Positions 2,286-57,058 are shown, counted from the first letter of the stretch. The stretch: 64,000 nucleotides of DNA from Candidatus Saccharimonadota bacterium (GCA_012965045.1 DTSZ01000001.1:591629-655628), one strand, 5' to 3'. The notes: generated by a model not told the origin, from the letters alone. Made by a program: numbers and translations.

Positions 2286-2474
2286 TGGTCGGGGTGAGAG
2301 GACTTGGTCACGTTCCGCGACCCCGAAACTTCACGTTTAAAAACTAGTTTTTAACGGAAGGTTTCCTTGCGAAATGACATTTAGTCATTTCTCACCTCCG
2401 ACTCACTCCGTGAGTTAGGAGTCACAAGTCTTCTCAAGCATTAAAAAAACTGCCCAAATGGACAGTTTTTTTAA
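2286..2474 (-). ncRNA. Unit A: tRNA-3'-end-associated structured element. It ends (minus sense) in a 21-nt copy of the tRNA-Pro T-arm/acceptor/CCA.
   Basis: 2286..2306 (tggtcggggtgagaggacttg) is identical to 2475..2495 of the tRNA-Pro gene. The body is paralogous to unit B, with compensatory hairpin changes. A terminator (2443..2472) separates it from the tRNA. Confidence 0.4.
2443..2472 (-). terminator. Intrinsic terminator downstream of tRNA-Pro
   Basis: Hairpin actgccca-aa-tggacagt flanked by an A-run and a T-run, so it can act in both directions. Confidence 0.6.
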
Positions 2475-9512: not shown

Positions 9513-10523
9513 TTAGGCAGTGCTAGCTTCGCGAATTTTCTTTTCGATTGTAGCCATATCTTTAGGGTGATCAGCCAGCCACTGTTTCGCAGCTTCCTTG
9601 CCCTGGCCAATCTTTTGATCGTTGTAGTCAAACCATGCACCAGCTTTCCCAATAATGTCGCATTTGACACCTAAATCCACTATATCGCCAGTTTTTGAAA
9701 TGCCTTGGTTATACATTATGTCGAATTCAGCAATTTTAAACGGTGGGGCAATTTTATTTTTTACCACTTTAACTTTTGTTCGATTTCCTATTACTTCATC
9801 GCCAGATTTAATTTGGCCAATACGCCTGATATCTAGCCGGACAGAGCTATAAAATTTTAGTGCGTTGCCGCCGGTTGTGGTTTCTGGATTACCGAACATG
9901 ACGCCGATTTTCATTCGTATTTGGTTAATGAATATAACCGTACAATTTGTGCGATTAATTACACCTGTTAATTTACGCAGCGCTTGGCTCATAAGACGAG
10001 CTTGCAAGCCCATGTGACTGTCACCCATTTCGCCTTCAATTTCTGCTCGTGGCACTAATGCGGCAACAGAGTCGATCACCACAAGGTCAACGGCATTAGA
10101 CCGCACTAATGTCTCGGCGATTTCCAAAGCTTGTTCGCCAGTATCAGGTTGCGAAATAAGTAAATTGTCGAGGTCAACGCCAATTTTTTTAGCGTATTCA
10201 GGGTCAAGGGCGTGTTCGGCGTCAACAAATGCAGCTGTGCCACCTTGTTTTTGAATTTCGGCAACAGCGTGCAAGGTTAGTGTGGTTTTACCAGAACTTT
10301 CTGGGCCGTAAATTTCGATAATCCTCCCCCGTGGCAAGCCACTGCCAAGTGCAAGGTCAATGCTTAAACTGCCACTTGAAAACGTTTCAACATTTTTAGC
10401 AGTATTTTCACCTAAATTCATAATAGAACCACTGCCAAATTGCTTTTCGATCTGCTCCATCGCCAGCTTTAGTGCTTGTTTTTTACCGTCGTTTGATCCA
10501 CCCTTGTCAGCCTTTGCCGCCAT
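9513..10523 (-). CDS. recA: Recombinase RecA
   Basis: Walker [14 protein letters not shown]. RecA core motifs [19 protein letters not shown] and [11 protein letters not shown]2 region [24 protein letters not shown]. Confidence 0.97.
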
Positions 10524-21856: not shown

Positions 21857-21883
21857 GCCCAAAGTATAACAAATATACACTTT

Positions 21884-21909
21884 TTAACGATCGTAAAAAT
21901 TTGTATACT
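21884..21909. promoter_or_regulatory. Near-palindromic operator-like site TTAACGATCGTAAAAATTTGTATACT in the ruvA / regulator divergent promoter
   Basis: Dyad core ACGATCGT. A second copy (22476..22501) sits inside a 36-bp palindrome downstream of the regulator gene. Confidence 0.45.
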
Positions 21910-21915
21910 CTAATC

Positions 21916-22464
21916 ATGTCAACGCGAGCAGCAGACCAAGCCAGTGCTCAAATCCTAAAAACATGCCTTCAGCTATTAAAAGATGCTGGTGGCTTAAGCC
22001 GAGACACGTTAAAAAACACCCTCACAAAACTCGATTTTGACCTATCTAACCGTCTCGTTAATTTACGCGTAAATTCTGTAATTTTGCGGGCTCGATCATC
22101 GCAGTTTATCGAAGAAGAAAATGGTCAATTAACGGTAACCTCTGCCGGTGTACTGCAGCTACAAAAACTAATACGGATCACTGACTTTAAGTTTCTTAAA
22201 AGCCAGCCATGGGACAATAAATGGAGGCTACTAAGTTACGATGTTCCAGAAACCGAACGTCAACTTCGCAATGAACTACGTGCCCTTATTAAGCAAGCGG
22301 ACTTTACTTTATTGCAGCGAAGTCTATGGATTACGCCGTACGCCTGCGAAAAACTCTTAGAAGATTTACTAGACAACTACCCAGATTACGTACAGCTATT
22401 TATCGTCAGCTCCATTAAGGGCGACATGAATTTTAGCGCAAATTTCAAAAACTACATCGACTAA
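21916..22464 (+). CDS. PaaX-family-like transcriptional regulator (putative)
   Basis: N-terminal HTH-like region. C-terminal WDNKWRLLSYDVPETERQLRNELRALIKQADFTLLQRSLWITP resembles the PaaX C-terminal domain signature (W.G.W.LV....PE...R..LR..L...GF..L..SVW..P). Start taken at MSTRAAD. Confidence 0.45.
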   Translation: MSTRAADQASAQILKTCLQLLKDAGGLSRDTLKNTLTKLDFDLSNRLVNLRVNSVILRARSSQFIEEENGQLTVTSAGVLQLQKLIRITDFKFLKSQPWDNKWRLLSYDVPETERQLRNELRALIKQADFTLLQRSLWITPYACEKLLEDLLDNYPDYVQLFIVSSIKGDMNFSANFKNYID

Positions 22465-22465
22465 C

Positions 22466-22501
22466 TATACAAAAATTAACGATCGTAAAATTTTGTATAG
22501 T
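22466..22501. promoter_or_regulatory. 36-bp near-perfect palindrome CTATACAAAAATTAACGATCGTAAAATTTTGTATAG (second copy of the ACGATCGT dyad)
   Basis: The arms are reverse complements with 2 mismatches. It lies between the convergent ends of the PaaX-like gene and ruvC. Confidence 0.45.
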
Positions 22502-22543
22502 CCGAGCGCTGCACCGGTATTGATAATTCAGCGACTGGTTAAT

Positions 22544-27427: not shown

Positions 27428-27606
27428 GGGGTGTGGTGGGACTCGCCAAAAGTATTTTTCTGGTGAAAAATCTTTTCGATCGTACTCTAGCGCCGGCGCA
27501 CTCCGGTCTTGCGAGAAGCAGACATGCATTTCTCACCCAACTGGGTTCGAGTCATTAAAACTGTCCAATTTAAAACCCGCCAAAAGGCGGGCGTTAAATT
27601 GGAGGG
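27428..27606 (-). repeat. Unit C: orphan copy of the tRNA-associated element, with no adjacent tRNA
   Basis: Shares with unit B the segment ccaatttaaaa-cccgcc-a(aaa/ttc)ggcgg-...-aattggaggg (terminator plus junction) and a tRNA-T-arm-like end ggcgagtcccac (27436..27447). Confidence 0.35.
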
Positions 27607-27644
27607 ACGTATGTATCGTTATTGCAACTAAAATAAATCTGCAA

Positions 27645-28151
27645 CTACTCAACGTTAAAAGTTAGAATGTTCGATTCGAAACCTTGCCATTGGAGTTTTG
27701 CTTGATGTTCGCCCGGTGGCAATTTTAATTCGTCACTAAATCCGATGTAATCACTGCTTATATCGTGAGAAAAGTCATCTACCAGCGTAAAAGGGTATTC
27801 ATACGTGATGGTTTTGTTTGAGCCGATATTTATATCTGTAAGCGCATCACCACAGGCATAGTACAGACCAATTGGTTGTTCATTTATATAAAACGTACCC
27901 TCGGTACATGTGGAAGAAAACGTATATGTTTTTGCACTTGTTGTTGGGTTGTTAATGAATGACTTGAAGGTAATTGATTCACCTATTGAATAGATGCTTT
28001 TGTGTAATCCTAGTTGTATATTCAACTCCCCATTCGTAGGTTCAGATACATTCTCATGTTTGACAAGCTTAGTCATTACTAAAAATAAACCAACTCCAGC
28101 TACTATTGCAATCAATAAAGCAATGATAGTAATTTTAACTTTTTTACTCAT
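27645..28151 (-). CDS. Hypothetical membrane-anchored/secreted beta-rich protein
   Basis: 168-aa ORF with an N-terminal TM/signal anchor (ITIIALLIAIVAGVGLFLVM) and a Ser/Thr/Tyr-rich beta-sandwich-like remainder. Bracketed by units C and B. Confidence 0.55.
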   Translation of the reverse strand: MSKKVKITIIALLIAIVAGVGLFLVMTKLVKHENVSEPTNGELNIQLGLHKSIYSIGESITFKSFINNPTTSAKTYTFSSTCTEGTFYINEQPIGLYYACGDALTDINIGSNKTITYEYPFTLVDDFSHDISSDYIGFSDELKLPPGEHQAKLQWQGFESNILTFNVE

Positions 28152-28255
28152 GACTTAACTATAACAAAAATGCTACAACATTAGTTGCGGCATTCTCATT
28201 TGAGTTATGATTTTGACCATATAAAAACACCTACGGCGAGATAGGTGTTTTTATA

Positions 28256-28441
28256 TGGAGGGTCCAGTGGGACTCGCCCACATTCTGCGGGCCCGAAACT
28301 ACGTCTTTCAAAACAAGTTTTGAAGAGTAAGTTTCCTTGCAAACTGCTCCCAGCAGTTTTCACCCCCGACACTACGTGTCGTGGCTTCGACCCAGTAAAA
28401 CTCTCCAATTTAAAAACCCGCCATTCGGCGGATTCATAAAT
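28256..28441 (-). ncRNA. Unit B: tRNA-3'-end-associated structured element. It ends (minus sense) in a 21-nt copy of the tRNA-Lys T-arm/acceptor/CCA and has terminators on both sides.
   Basis: 28256..28276 (tggagggtccagtgggactcg) is identical to 28442..28462 of the tRNA-Lys gene. An intrinsic terminator (28411..28432) lies between the tRNA and the unit. A second hairpin plus T-run (28222..28250) lies after the unit. The internal hairpins covary with unit A. Confidence 0.45.
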
Positions 28442-28518
28442 TGGAGGGTCCAGTGGGACTCGAACCCACGACACCCTGCTTAAAAGGCAGGTGCTCTAAC
28501 CAGCTGAGCTATGGACCC
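28442..28518 (-). tRNA. tRNA-Lys (anticodon TTT), CCA encoded
   Basis: Manual cloverleaf. Acceptor GGGTCCA/TGGACCC, D-stem GCTC/GAGC, anticodon stem CCTGC/GCAGG, loop CTTTTAA, T-arm GTGGG-TTCGAGT-CCCAC. Length 77 nt. Confidence 0.9.
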
Positions 28519-42485: not shown

Positions 42486-42791
42486 TTTTTCCTCCTAAGT
42501 TTTGCAACGTAGCTCTCTGCCCGCGAACAAATTTCGCTGCTCCAGAGCTACTTAAAGCGCATTACTTCGTCAAAACCTACATCACTCGTTCGAAGTACTA
42601 TTTGTACATCTCACTCGTTTTTTGGCTTTTCCTTGTACTGCATCTTTATGCAAAGCTTAGGAGCTAAAAAGCTAGTTACCTGAAAATCTTCTTGCTTGAA
42701 TTTATTAAATTACTTTTTACGAATCACTAGTTACCAAATACGAACTACTGATTCCTAGCAGTTACCTGCCACCAGTGCTAGTTTAGCAGAA

Positions 42792-42818
42792 TTAGCACTC
42801 ACGGTGCAAGAGTGCTAG
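42792..42818. promoter_or_regulatory. CIRCE operator (HrcA binding site) in the dnaK leader
   Basis: TTAGCACTC-acggtgcaa-GAGTGCTAG: 9-bp inverted repeat with a 9-nt spacer, about 310 nt upstream of the dnaK start. Confidence 0.8.
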
Positions 42819-44875: not shown

Positions 44876-44895
44876 AGTAGCTAAATTATAGATTT

Positions 44896-44922
44896 TTAGC
44901 ACTCAAATGTCCAGAGTGCTAA
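44896..44922. promoter_or_regulatory. CIRCE operator (perfect consensus) at the hrcA promoter
   Basis: TTAGCACTC-aaatgtcca-GAGTGCTAA. Confidence 0.85.
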
Positions 44923-47295: not shown

Positions 47296-49116
47296 TTAGT
47301 CCTTTTTAAGTAACACTGTGAAAGCTTCGGGCGGTATTTCTACTTTACCGAATTTTTTCATTCGTTGTTTACCAGCTTTTTGCTTGGCCCATAATTTCTT
47401 TTTACGAGACACGTCGCCGCCGTATAAATGACCGGTAACATTTTTGCCCAAGGCTTTAATATCTTCACGAGCGAGTATTTTACTGCCAACCGCTGCTTGC
47501 AAAGCAACTTCAAATAGCTGACGCGGAATAACGTCTTTGAGTTTTTCCAACATTTTACGGCCGGTACTTTCTGCTTCTGATTTATGAGTCATAATACTTA
47601 AACTGTCCATGCGCTCACCACCTACTAAAATATCTAAACGTACTAAATCCTGGGCTCTATAATCAGCAATTTCATAGCTTAGTGTGCCGTAGCCGCTGGT
47701 AGTGCTTTTTAGTTGGTCATAAAAATCTGTTAGCACATTTGCCAGTGGTGCCTCAAAGCTTACTGTGGCTAAATGCTCGTCGACATAGCTAATATTTTTC
47801 TGGTGGCCCCGAGTTGAAACAATTAACTGCACAACATTCCCAACATAATCTACGGGTACAATAATTTCACCGCGAATCCACGGCTCACGAATTTCTGCGA
47901 TATGCGTCGGATCAGGCAGGTTGCTGGCCGAACGAATGGTTTGCTCTTCGCCACTGGCCATTACAACGTGGTAGTCGGTCGACGGATTAGTCACAATCAC
48001 CTCAACCCCTTGGTGGCGCTCAATTCGTTCTTGCACAATTTCAAGATGCAACAGACCTAAAAACCCAACCCTAAACCCAAAGCCAAGAATTTGTGAATTT
48101 TCTGGTTCATACACTAAAGCTGCATCATTTAAACTAACTTTTTCTAGTGCGTCTTTGAGGTTTGGGTAGTCGTCGGCGCTAGCTGGAAACACTCCAGCAT
48201 ACACAAATGGTATAGCTTGTTTATAGCCAGGCAAAGCCTCTGCAGTGGTTCCGTGTAATACAACTGTGTCGCCAACGCGAGCGTCGGCAACTGTTTTAAA
48301 GTTGGTAACAATATAGCCAATTTCGCCCGCCTTGAGGCTTGGTGTTGGCACTTGTTTCGGACTAAAAAAGCCAGTAATTAACGCCCGTCCGTCAGCTTTT
48401 GTGCCCAGCATGGTTATGTCGGCGTTCTTTTTAATCTCGCCAGCCACGACTTTTACATACAGCACTACACCTTGATATTCATCCAAAAACGAATCAAAAA
48501 CCAATGCTTTGGCGGTTTCGTCTTTTAGTGGTTGTGGCGGCGGAACGCGCTCAACAACAGCCTTTAAAACGGCCTCAACATTTTGGCCAGTCTTTGCGCT
48601 AATTTCTATAATTTCTTCCCGCTTGCATCCCAGTAAACTAATAACTTCTTTACTAACGCGGTCAACATCGGCCGCAGGCAAGTCTACTTTGTTTAGTACC
48701 GGAATAATCTCTAGATCTTGTTCAAGCGCTAAATACACATTCGCCAGTGTCTGAGCCTGTATACCTTGACTCGCGTCTACGACAAGGATTGCACCTTCCA
48801 CAGCTGCCAAGCTACGACTAACTTCGTAACTAAAGTCGACATGGCCGGGAGTGTCAATCAAGTTGAGTTGATACTCAATTTGATTGACGCCATCTTCCAT
48901 CTTCTTTCTTCCATCTTCCGAATGACGGTACGTCATTCTAACCGGCTGCAATTTTATGGTAATACCTTTTTCCCGCTCCAGATCCATCTGGTCAAGTAGC
49001 TGTTCTTTCATTTCACGCTTGGTAACCGTCCCAGTAATTTCCATAAGCCGATCCGCCAAGGTCGACTTACCGTGGTCAATGTGGGCAATAATGCAGAAAT
49101 TTCTAATATTTTCCAT
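47296..49116 (-). CDS. lepA: Translation elongation factor 4 (LepA)
   Basis: MENIRNFCIIAHIDHGKSTL G-domain start and the LepA-specific C-terminal domain. Internal Met preferred over the track start at 49140. Confidence 0.95.
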   Translation of the reverse strand: MENIRNFCIIAHIDHGKSTLADRLMEITGTVTKREMKEQLLDQMDLEREKGITIKLQPVRMTYRHSEDGRKKMEDGVNQIEYQLNLIDTPGHVDFSYEVSRSLAAVEGAILVVDASQGIQAQTLANVYLALEQDLEIIPVLNKVDLPAADVDRVSKEVISLLGCKREEIIEISAKTGQNVEAVLKAVVERVPPPQPLKDETAKALVFDSFLDEYQGVVLYVKVVAGEIKKNADITMLGTKADGRALITGFFSPKQVPTPSLKAGEIGYIVTNFKTVADARVGDTVVLHGTTAEALPGYKQAIPFVYAGVFPASADDYPNLKDALEKVSLNDAALVYEPENSQILGFGFRVGFLGLLHLEIVQERIERHQGVEVIVTNPSTDYHVVMASGEEQTIRSASNLPDPTHIAEIREPWIRGEIIVPVDYVGNVVQLIVSTRGHQKNISYVDEHLATVSFEAPLANVLTDFYDQLKSTTSGYGTLSYEIADYRAQDLVRLDILVGGERMDSLSIMTHKSEAESTGRKMLEKLKDVIPRQLFEVALQAAVGSKILAREDIKALGKNVTGHLYGGDVSRKKKLWAKQKAGKQRMKKFGKVEIPPEAFTVLLKKD

Positions 49117-55999: not shown

Positions 56000-57058
56000 C
56001 TATTTTAGCACTTCCATACGTGGAGTGCTAATCCGCACAATTGATGAAATTTGCTTCTGGTGCTTGAGCTCTATTCTACTGCCAAGTTCGGTAATTTTAC
56101 TAGGTAAAGACGCATTAATCGAGTCTGCTCCCCTCGTAATTTGCTCTGTATTGAGCTCGGCATCGCTATTTAATCGCAACACCAAAAACCTCAGTAGCTC
56201 ATGTTGTATTTTTTGATCGAGACTTGAAAAAGCCTGCCTGTCGACGTTAATGCGTGCACCCTGTTTATCAGAAACCGCTTTTTCGATACCACCTAACAAC
56301 TCGTCGATTTCTGCATTAATTGTAAGCATGCGGCTGTATATTTTTTGTAGTTTTTTAGACGTATTTTGAGCCCGCCCCAGCTTTGCTCGAATTGCATTAC
56401 GGGTATAGGTGTTGTCTTTGTTGGTTGAATCCTCGACAAACTCTATATTATGCGCAACACAGTACTCATAAATTTGATTTTTAGTTACGTTTAATAACGG
56501 CCGTTTTATATGCAGCGTTTCTTTTAGTGACGTCAACCCACTCCGCCCCGTTCCCCGTTGAAGGTTAATAAGAATTGTTTCCGCAATATCGTCGGCATGG
56601 TGGGCGGTAATAATTGCAGTGGCATCATGCTTTACGCGAAGGTCGTGCAAAAACTCCCACCGACCGGCACGGGCAGCTGCTTCACTTTTTTTAGGCAGTG
56701 TGAGTTTAGTTGATACGTAGTTGAGCTTATATTTTTGCGCAAGTTCGCGCACAAAGCGCTCATCGTCGCTGCTGTCGGTACGCCAACCATGGTCAACATG
56801 CGCTACGATAAGTTCGTATCTATTTTTTATTTTTCTTTTTTCACCTTTCATTGATTTTTCATTATTCGGTTGATCATTGGTAGATTCTAAATTATTCCGA
56901 ACCAGCCTGTCTGTGGGCAAGACTGCGAACTGCGAACTGCGAACTGCTAGCCTGTGCAGCAGCACAACCGAATCTACCCCACCAGACACTGCCACAATGT
57001 ACTTCCCTGGTTTCGGCCATAAAATTTCCATGCCATAATGATAACAATGAATGAACAT
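56000..57058 (-). CDS. tilS: tRNA(Ile)-lysidine synthetase TilS
   Basis: PP-loop IVAVSGGVDSVVLLH. A low-complexity insertion follows it. Probable start at the internal Met (MEILWPKPGKY). Confidence 0.85.
   Translation of the reverse strand: MFIHCYHYGMEILWPKPGKYIVAVSGGVDSVVLLHRLAVRSSQFAVLPTDRLVRNNLESTNDQPNNEKSMKGEKRKIKNRYELIVAHVDHGWRTDSSDDERFVRELAQKYKLNYVSTKLTLPKKSEAAARAGRWEFLHDLRVKHDATAIITAHHADDIAETILINLQRGTGRSGLTSLKETLHIKRPLLNVTKNQIYEYCVAHNIEFVEDSTNKDNTYTRNAIRAKLGRAQNTSKKLQKIYSRMLTINAEIDELLGGIEKAVSDKQGARINVDRQAFSSLDQKIQHELLRFLVLRLNSDAELNTEQITRGADSINASLPSKITELGSRIELKHQKQISSIVRISTPRMEVLK

Follow-up and report, generated by a model that had tools for sequence, protein, structure and literature searches.

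What occupies the interval between the tRNA-Lys(UUU) gene and a Kef-type antiporter gene in a Candidatus Saccharibacteria genome, and how did it come to be there? Saccharibacteria have tiny genomes, single-copy tRNA genes, and few recognised mobile elements. In the 64-kb stretch of DNA that was analysed (the window), the interval contains two small structured units, B and C, with one open reading frame (ORF) between them. We read the region as a three-layer stack of insertions at the 3′ end of tRNA-Lys(UUU), formed by the modules B and C and a gene cassette, and assign this reading a probability of roughly 55%. Both units belong to families with a covarying structure, direct repeats of the tRNA end accompany the layers, the stack is absent from a relative with the same tRNA, and the gene has an odd composition and a cassette end homologous to those of other loci.

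Organization of the tRNA-Lys locus

All relevant features are located on the minus strand of the window, where they follow one another in the order tRNA, unit B, hairpin, ORF, 24-nt motif with CCCTCCA, and unit C. A paralogue of unit B, unit A, is used as a reference.

28442 to 28518, minus strand: tRNA-Lys(UUU), intact, with a gene-encoded CCA end (ARAGORN; Rfam tRNA, 73.9 bits)
28441 to 28256, minus strand: unit B, directly 3′ of tRNA-Lys(UUU)
28255 to 28217, minus strand: hairpin 3′ of unit B
28151 to 27645, minus strand: 168-aa ORF, the sole ORF between units B and C
27630 to 27600, minus strand: 24-nt motif R and CCCTCCA
27606 to 27428, minus strand: unit C, counting the shared CCCTCCA (27599 to 27428 without it)
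27406: convergent end of the Kef-type antiporter gene, beyond unit C
2286 to 2474, minus strand: unit A, a type-1 module directly after tRNA-Pro(UGG) at 2475 to 2551

The whole window contains only three tRNAs, and neither ARAGORN nor Rfam (RF00005) recognizes units A, B, or C as a tRNA. A transfer-messenger RNA (tmRNA), permuted or not, was considered and dropped, as ARAGORN calls none in the window. A preliminary description of the locus had placed unit C at 27428 to 27606 without an adjoining tRNA, with a terminator plus junction segment and a T-arm-like terminus in common with unit B, and the analysis bears this out. The shared segment is repeat D16, which comprises the CCA-terminator-TGG part and the following stretch (37 nt, 84% identity), and the shared terminus is cgagtcccac. 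The similarity of the two units is far above chance because both belong to large covarying families. The sequence diverges after ttggaggg, where a tRNA would start, as had been stated; only the last 7 nt of a tRNA-Lys end precede unit C, and no tRNA follows ccctcca/ttggaggg. Units B and C bracket a single gene, and the order tRNA-Lys, unit B, gene, unit C stands as first described; the same arrangement of tRNA, unit, cargo, and unit is found at loci L033, L068, and L081.

Units A and B are type-1 modules

Type-1 modules are defined by UGAGAA-P2, by GCAAGGAAAC-P3-GUUUCGGG, by a P4 hairpin with a conserved G·U pair, and by flanks copied in sense from the neighbouring tRNA. Units A and B are of this type, with scores of 111 and 108.6 bits against the type-1 covariance model R1 and arms that match tRNA-Pro and tRNA-Lys, respectively. 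In both units the CCA of the tRNA is followed by a terminator-like hairpin, the stem of which extends so that CCA pairs with TGG. Then come a short spacer, an antisense T-arm, a short sense arm corresponding to the variable loop with the T-stem 5′ strand, the core with its three hairpins P2, P3, and P4, and finally 21 nt that exactly repeat the tRNA from its T-loop through CCA. The resulting direct repeats are spaced 186 nt apart in unit B and 189 nt in unit A. The two units are 74% alike and differ by compensatory changes in each of the three hairpins. Their parts are as follows.

28405 to 28441, minus strand: terminator-like hairpin of unit B (CCA-attta..ccgcc gaat ggcgg-ttttt..aaat-TGG), read from the sequence and homologous to the unit C hairpin and the distal hairpin of L266
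28376 to 28393, minus strand: antisense copy of the tRNA-Lys T-arm and variable region (gggtcgaagccacgacac), by comparison with the reverse complement of the tRNA; seen family-wide
28363 to 28372, minus strand: short sense arm gtgtcggggg, tRNA-Lys variable loop and T-stem 5′ strand with one mismatch
28277 to 28362, minus strand: type-1 core (UGAAAAC-P2-GCAAGGAAAC-P3-GUUUCGGG-P4), R1 108.6 bits, E = 3e-33
28256 to 28276, minus strand: long 3′ arm (cgagtcccactggaccctcca), exact 21-nt tRNA-Lys 3′ end from T-loop to CCA
2306 to 2286, minus strand: 3′ arm of unit A, exact 21-nt copy of the tRNA-Pro 3′ end

The hairpin of unit B resembles a terminator and is probably carried by the module itself. 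When L041 is compared with L026, it is the tRNA-proximal hairpin that varies, as expected if a module brings its own hairpin.

Three other interpretations of parts of these units were rejected. An acceptor-like closing stem (GGGUC/GACCC) is found in unit B only and is absent from unit A and most members. The CUGAUGA sequence in P3 was considered as part of a hammerhead, but it is situated inside a continuous covarying helix and is missing from most members. A snap-back complementary DNA origin of the antisense segment was rejected because the segment copies the uninterrupted T-arm rather than the core.

Directly past the CCA of unit A, at 2246-2285 on the minus strand, there is a degenerate stretch similar to the tRNA-Pro 3′ end (agtcc..ctctcacccccggctca), split by the small hairpin cctgcggcagg. 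Possibly this is a tRNA-Pro end displaced at an earlier time, in which case insertion at tRNA-Pro would have been serial as well.

Unit C contains a second type of core

The preliminary description treated unit C as a third paralogous copy that a covariance model built from units A and B should find. Model R1 gives unit C 14.2 bits, which is at chance level, below the 16.2 bits of a chance match inside lepA, so that detection effectively fails. The kinship holds at the level of a superfamily: unit C has UGAGAA-P2-GCAAG in common with type 1 and then continues with ACCGGAG..GGCGCU, and it is not a copy of A or B. A motif search of metagenome contigs based on unit C found at least 24 true members, located inside partial tRNA copies beside tRNA-Gln, tRNA-Ala, and tRNA-Arg. 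They define type 2, which is characterized by UGAGAA-P2, GCAAGRCCGGAAGCGCGACGGCGCUGAGG, an extended P4, and tRNA-derived arms. The type-2 model R2, from the building of which unit C was excluded, matches unit C over the full model length with 52.5 bits (E = 6e-17), and the arms of the unit match the tRNA-Lys T-arm. Unit C had been taken for a decayed att-like distal end; it is instead an intact member of a widespread second core type.

27600 to 27606, minus strand: CCCTCCA, which repeats the last 7 nt at the tRNA-Lys 3′ end and marks both where the cassette ends distally and where unit C starts proximally
27565 to 27599, minus strand: CCA-hairpin-TGG terminator-like element (atttaacg cccgcc tttt ggcggg ttttaaattgg), from a terminator scan; homologous to the unit B hairpin
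27536 to 27553, minus strand: antisense T-arm (gactcgaaccca, 12/12 to the tRNA-Lys antisense), gt loop, and short sense arm tggg
27446 to 27535, minus strand: type-2 core (UGAGAAA-P2-GCAAGACCGGAG..GGCGCU..-long P4), R2 52.5 bits
27428 to 27445, minus strand: 3′ arm, the first 10 nt of which (cgagtcccac) are tRNA-Lys positions 56-65, with a diverged acceptor part (cacacccc)

The minimum free energy fold of unit C shows a closing stem, GACUCG/CGAGUC. The lepA/EF4 coding sequence at 48830-48955 on the minus strand matches both models weakly (R1 16.2 bits, R2 26.4 bits). These matches are treated as chance and set the noise level of the models, and the R2 E-value of 9e-8 obtained there indicates that their calibration is rough.

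The type-2 segment GCC-GGA-AGCGC-GACG-GCGCU-GA-GGC (alignment A5 columns 43-67; window 27509-27487) is near-invariant. Its fold is a hairpin in which a 3x2 internal loop carries tandem G/A, a candidate for a kink-turn-like or protein-binding motif. Two contigs, L141 and L142, from independent assemblies of one population, stop at a common window position, 27525, within P2 of unit C; the shared end may reflect a strain variant or a repeat-induced break.

The cores fold as single strands under selection

The type-1 core has a length of about 107 nt and forms the three hairpins P2, P3, and P4; across the modules of both types, the core has three to four hairpins. In the alignment of 66 type-1 sequences, 97.6% of the pair cells are standard, compared with 80.1% in shuffles and 24-44% when the partners are slid against each other, and 21 of the 34 pairs have changed on both sides. 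For type 2, the 21 sequences other than unit C are 96% paired, with 22 pairs changed on both sides. A G·U pair in P4 is conserved in both core types and is kept in 58 of the 66 type-1 sequences. G:U pairs outnumber A:C pairs by 98 to 12 in type 1 and by 37 to 7 in type 2, which identifies the tRNA-sense strand as the folding strand. Judged by these base changes, the core is a folded single strand, either RNA or single-stranded DNA, under selection. The strand-specific G·U excess and the tRNA-type promoters in front of the upstream copies are indirect evidence that the modules may be transcribed. The units had previously been viewed as plain att remnants, which does not agree with conserved structured modules that carry so many compensatory base changes.

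Distribution of the modules and their association with tRNA genes

The pattern GCAAGGAAAY-N(24-36)-RGTTTCGGG, used to search the GTDB species representatives for type 1, identified about 70 true copies, nearly all from metagenome-assembled genomes (MAGs) of Saccharibacteria; its other matches are scattered chance hits. Directly beside a tRNA on the same strand lie 55 of 71 type-1 copies, and more than 15 tRNA species are involved. The flanks of the cores are sense copies of the adjoining tRNA, and about 20 copies end in an exact 20-21-nt copy of its 3′ end. Two configurations occur. In the first, the full tRNA is followed by a hairpin, the antisense segment, a short 5′ arm, the core, and a long 3′ arm ending in CCA. 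In the second, a promoter precedes a long 5′ arm (tRNA positions 1 to about 53), the core, a short 3′ arm, the antisense segment, a promoter-bearing spacer, and the full tRNA. The direct repeats are spaced by 172-197 nt in 20 units and by more where they contain cargo (2707 nt in L033, 1144 nt in L081). Tandem copies are present in L077 and L068, and in the latter the distal unit is the decayed one. Cores are nested inside P4 of another core in L013, L089, L113, and six metagenome contigs; cores within cores are seen in L192, L205, and L215.

Partial copies of tRNA-Gln and tRNA-Trp, each single and bearing one type-1 and one type-2 core in the D region and the T-loop, are found in L190 (127-330) and L116 (5900-6160). 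Composites in which a type-1 5′ part is joined by a complete type-2 core and a remnant of P4 recur in L013, L192, L205, L215, L221, and L223.

The core replaces approximately 2 nt of a tRNA loop, which in most copies is the T-loop. Other sites are the tRNA-Pro(GGG) anticodon loop, the tRNA-Val variable loop, and, in tRNA-Gly/Pro, the junction that follows the D-arm, and the flanks GRG|NN|CG suggest a rule by which the loop would be chosen. Insertions at several tRNA loop positions resemble archaeal non-canonical introns, and the tRNA-Pro(GGG) site lies at position 37/38, the canonical intron site. The cores could thus be imagined as relics of tRNA introns or split-tRNA genes, in which an intron-bearing copy was superseded by an intron-less one. 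We consider this highly improbable: in no copy are both exons complete, truncation and the antisense cap always affecting one side, and the adjoining tRNA is always intact. In addition, splicing would not restore the tRNA, as the loop lacks about 2 nt, and no group I, group II, bulge-helix-bulge, or other ribozyme or intron family was matched.

Copies of one kind of module recur on the same tRNA in several genomes, such as tRNA-Lys(CUU) in six MAGs and tRNA-Gly(GCC) in four. Such recurrence fits long vertical inheritance under structural selection, that is, a host function. The units would then be small RNAs of the host tied to their cognate tRNA in processing, protection, or as decoys, having arisen by partial duplication of the tRNA gene on the spot and persisting under purifying selection, and the gene between B and C would be an ordinary, fast-evolving one. 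This is the main rival explanation, possible although unlikely. It agrees with the very strong covariation including the G·U pair common to both core types, with 3′ arms that are kept exactly identical to the tRNA, with the tRNA-type promoter kept by upstream copies, and with the lack of any mobility gene at the loci examined. Module orientation is always that of the tRNA, which makes co-transcription possible. The gain and loss of modules, their nesting and decay, and the cargo are accommodated less well. Presence or absence varies at an identical tRNA between relatives, copies occur in tandem, nested, and decaying forms, downstream copies lie behind a terminator without a promoter, and the repeats enclose cargo ORFs. 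Moreover, the core subtypes do not track which tRNA they adjoin: unit B and L033 have similar cores on different Lys isoacceptors, whereas A and B, from one genome, are only 74% alike.

The gene between units B and C belongs to a cassette

The 168-aa gene has a GC content of 35.7%, as compared with 43.7 ± 2.2% for the 35 long ORFs of the window (z = -3.6), the lowest of them all. Neither Pfam nor PADLOC has a match for its protein, of which 5.8 billion proteins contain only two homologues. Four other contigs that carry the gene are 99.9-100% identical to the window. The protein is an ORFan with a predicted N-terminal transmembrane or signal helix and a predicted beta-rich remainder; a low-confidence AlphaFold model (predicted local distance difference test score of 50), too poor for a search by fold, shows an N-terminal helix and then beta strands, which is consistent with the secreted or membrane-anchored, beta-rich product originally suggested. 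The gene had also been proposed to be a passenger, its GC content to be compared with that of its surroundings, and unit C to be its distal boundary. The low GC content and the absence of the gene from relative L123 speak for a passenger. The boundary is not unit C itself but the R motif with CCCTCCA, at 27630 to 27600.

28217 to 28255, minus strand: left end of the cassette, a second CCA-hairpin-TGG terminator-like element (tataaaaacacc..ggtgtttttatatgg), read from the sequence
27607 to 27630, minus strand: right-end motif R (tagttgcaataacgatacatacgt), which aligns with tRNA-Lys island ends in L122, L113, L121, L033, and L098

In L122, a homologue of the 168-aa gene is flanked on both sides by the R motif GTTGCAACAAGAAGTACGGTGGCCCTCCA. 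The tagttgcaataacgatacatacgt-ccctcca sequence after the window gene is homologous to these flanks, and R aligns across six loci. It follows that the cassette spans 28255 to 27607, bounded by GACCCTCCA and GTCCCTCCA.

At the same end of the cassette, TAGTTGCA is present twice, 17 nt apart (27622-27646, minus strand), a small local duplication of which one copy overlaps the stop codon of the 168-aa gene and the other lies where the R motif starts. In L113, positions 1372-2026, just past the R-type end of a tRNA-Lys island, there is a pair of ORFs that resembles a PIN/VapC-like toxin and its antitoxin and would be typical island cargo.

Comparison with relatives and the possibility of att remnants

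The relative L123 has an antiporter that is 75% identical, the same flanking ComEC, ATP-grasp, and GH130 genes, and a tRNA-Lys(UUU) that is 100% identical over 79 nt. There, the tRNA is followed only by a terminator and then by a Mur-ligase gene, without unit B, the gene, or unit C, which supports serial insertion at the tRNA 3′ end. No unit is present in L264 and L265, a type-1 unit follows tRNA-Lys(UUU) in L266, and the interval between antiporter and tRNA differs in every relative. The comparison of presence and absence called for in the preliminary description thus shows that both the gene and the units differ between relatives, and, together with the recurring order of tRNA, unit, cargo, and unit, it upholds the serial tandem accretion proposed there. 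Cargo is enclosed by the repeats at other loci too: four ORFs in L033, including one for an S24/LexA-like protein, and one ORF each in L081 and L215.

In L266, at approximately 9915-10000 on the minus strand, the complete type-1 unit is succeeded by a hairpin that is near-identical to its counterparts in units B and C, an antisense T-arm, and a sense arm that runs into ttcagat without a core.

Leftover attL/attR and attP arm DNA of integrase islands or prophages that have lost their bodies could also yield a serial layout with the newest element next to the tRNA. The direct repeats of the tRNA 3′ end begin in the T-loop, which is reportedly among the classical crossover sublocations, the R-type end has an identity core of 7-10 nt at the extreme 3′ end of tRNA-Lys, and the cargo of L033 includes the S24/LexA-like repressor. 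For the units we regard this origin as improbable. Independent deletions would not leave the same 172-197-nt unit at 20 loci; 21-22 compensatory base pairs and a strand-specific G·U excess are unexpected for att arm DNA; and cores also occupy the D-arm, the anticodon loop, and the variable loop, as well as sites upstream of tRNAs. None of the loci examined yielded an integrase, nor did 2.9 million viral contigs yield a member of the family. The 12 and 40 matches of the patterns in IMG/VR are all chance matches in coding DNA, and these scans also led us to reject a phage or prophage element. For the gene cassette alone, the att-remnant explanation may apply.

A proposed stack of insertions at tRNA-Lys(UUU)

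According to the insertion-stack reading, units B and C, layers 1 and 3, are two subtypes of one family of small modules without a protein gene. Each module comprises a conserved, folded RNA-like core, a partial tRNA copy around it, an antisense arm that caps the truncated side, and its own terminator-like hairpin. A module would enter when its tRNA-derived arm recombines with the tRNA gene of the chromosome; entry would rebuild the intact tRNA, displace the previous 3′ end distally, and leave the 21-nt direct repeat. Layer 2 is a 650-bp low-GC cassette with one ORFan gene; its site of entry would have been the final 7-9 nt of the tRNA end (CCCTCCA). In the first step, a type-2 module, unit C, would have recombined with tRNA-Lys through its 3′ arm, and each later arrival would have pushed the earlier ones outward. 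Unit C would accordingly be the oldest and most distal layer, the cassette the next, and unit B, beside the tRNA, the newest. We infer this order of events and entry by recombination, with either a trans-acting enzyme encoded elsewhere or an RNA-based mechanism. The family behaves like a mobile element without an enzyme gene of its own.

Several observations weigh against the stack of insertions. No integrase, transposase, or reverse transcriptase was found in or beside any module or cargo stretch examined. The recurrence of one module kind on the same tRNA, described above, belongs here, as do the units that lie after a terminator and have no evident promoter. Simple att recombination does not predict the antisense cap or cores at the D-arm, anticodon, and variable loops, and L266 has the hairpin of antisense and sense arms without a core. 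Finally, the contigs of the same population, which come from hydrothermal-vent metagenome samples, are all identical and display no within-species polymorphism, and at 75% amino-acid identity the relative without the stack is a distant one.

We tentatively entertain a further, rather unlikely idea, that the cores are the RNA part of a previously unknown mobile system that targets tRNA genes without encoding a recombinase. The tRNA loop to be invaded would be picked by the sense arms and the antisense segment, serving as guides or splints, and insertion would be accomplished by a trans-acting host enzyme or by the RNA itself, in a manner similar to reverse splicing or by templating. The repeats of the tRNA end would then become landing pads for ORFan cassettes.

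Relationship to known systems

The modules can be compared with tRNA-targeting integrative elements and genomic islets, among them integrase-less remnants that are mobilizable in cis (CIMEs) and show tandem accretion. In these, too, the tRNA is rebuilt by an element-borne 3′ copy, direct repeats of the tRNA end are formed, the newest element lies beside the tRNA with older ones pushed distally, and the cargo consists of ORFans with deviant GC content. Repeats of the tRNA 3′ part are present here, with 21 nt for unit B and 7-9 nt (CCCTCCA) for the cassette, whereas neither the neighbours in the window nor the cargo of L033, L081, L113, L121, L122, and L215 yielded an integrase domain. The modules differ in having a minimal unit of about 185 bp without an integrase, a covarying core inside tRNA-derived sequence, and an antisense cap, and in their occurrence upstream of tRNAs and in other tRNA loops.

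Integron attC arrays similarly contain promoter-less single ORFan genes between partly palindromic elements that fold as single strands, and grow at one fixed site. In contrast, the modules have no IntI, attI, or adjacent integrase, most units are without a gene, and their conserved primary sequence, with cores and tRNA arms, replaces the R′′-L′′/L′-R′ architecture of attC. The omega RNAs of TnpB/IscB (IS200/605 ends) and the bridge RNA of IS110 resemble the modules in that a conserved scaffold (about 110-130 nt) adjoins a variable segment (about 20 nt) identical in sequence to the site occupied, and in that copies without a protein gene exist. The modules, however, have arms on both sides of the scaffold, an antisense copy, a duplicated target, no Rfam match, and no TnpB, IscB, or IS110 gene nearby. 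As a test for IS200/605-derived palindrome-associated transposable elements or omega RNA, 70 loci with a tRNA within about 100 nt were inspected and no adjoining tnpA, tnpB, or iscB was found; tnpB was not sought genome-wide. Miniature inverted-repeat transposable elements do not match either, since the inverted segments are tRNA-derived and differ per copy, and the duplication comprises 20-62 nt of the tRNA end, with or without the terminator.

Complementary stretches that join tRNA pieces are a further likeness to archaeal introns and split tRNAs, but the modules are bacterial, no complete exon pair or bulge-helix-bulge was seen, and a functional tRNA is intact next door. The tmRNA, YrlA, and viral tRNA-like structures combine a large structured insertion with a T-arm, an acceptor 3′ strand, and a CCA end. 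The modules lack the acceptor 5′ strand, their tRNA part varies with the neighbouring tRNA, and many copies are present per genome; no tmRNA or YrlA was found here by ARAGORN or Rfam. In Rfam 15, no family covers the cores of the units at the gathering score or at E ≤ 10, and no description of the modules was found in the literature searched. In present annotation the family is invisible or misread as att-site debris.

Other repeats in the window

Repeat family D11, TTAGCACTC-N9-GAGTGCTAA, has three copies (42790-42818, 44894-44922, and 56003-56031). It matches the CIRCE operator (controlling inverted repeat of chaperone expression) of the HrcA heat-shock regulon, and the copies are probably upstream of chaperone genes. 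The palindrome TATACA..TTAACGATCGTAAAA..TGTATA occurs in two 40-nt copies (21871-21910 and 22463-22502; 83% identity, 592 nt apart) and could be an operator or another binding site.

Implications

Many tRNA genes of Saccharibacteria are flanked by covarying structured modules of two core types, nested or combined in some cases. Should the modules be mobile, they would represent a new way of inserting DNA at tRNA genes, possibly RNA-guided, and would explain the small cargo beside tRNAs in these episymbionts. Were the cores the RNA component of such a system, stacks of gene cassettes in reduced Saccharibacteria genomes would be built in an RNA-programmed manner. If the modules are host RNAs, they would form a new class of tRNA-linked regulators or decoys. 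In either case, the modules should be modelled in genome annotation.

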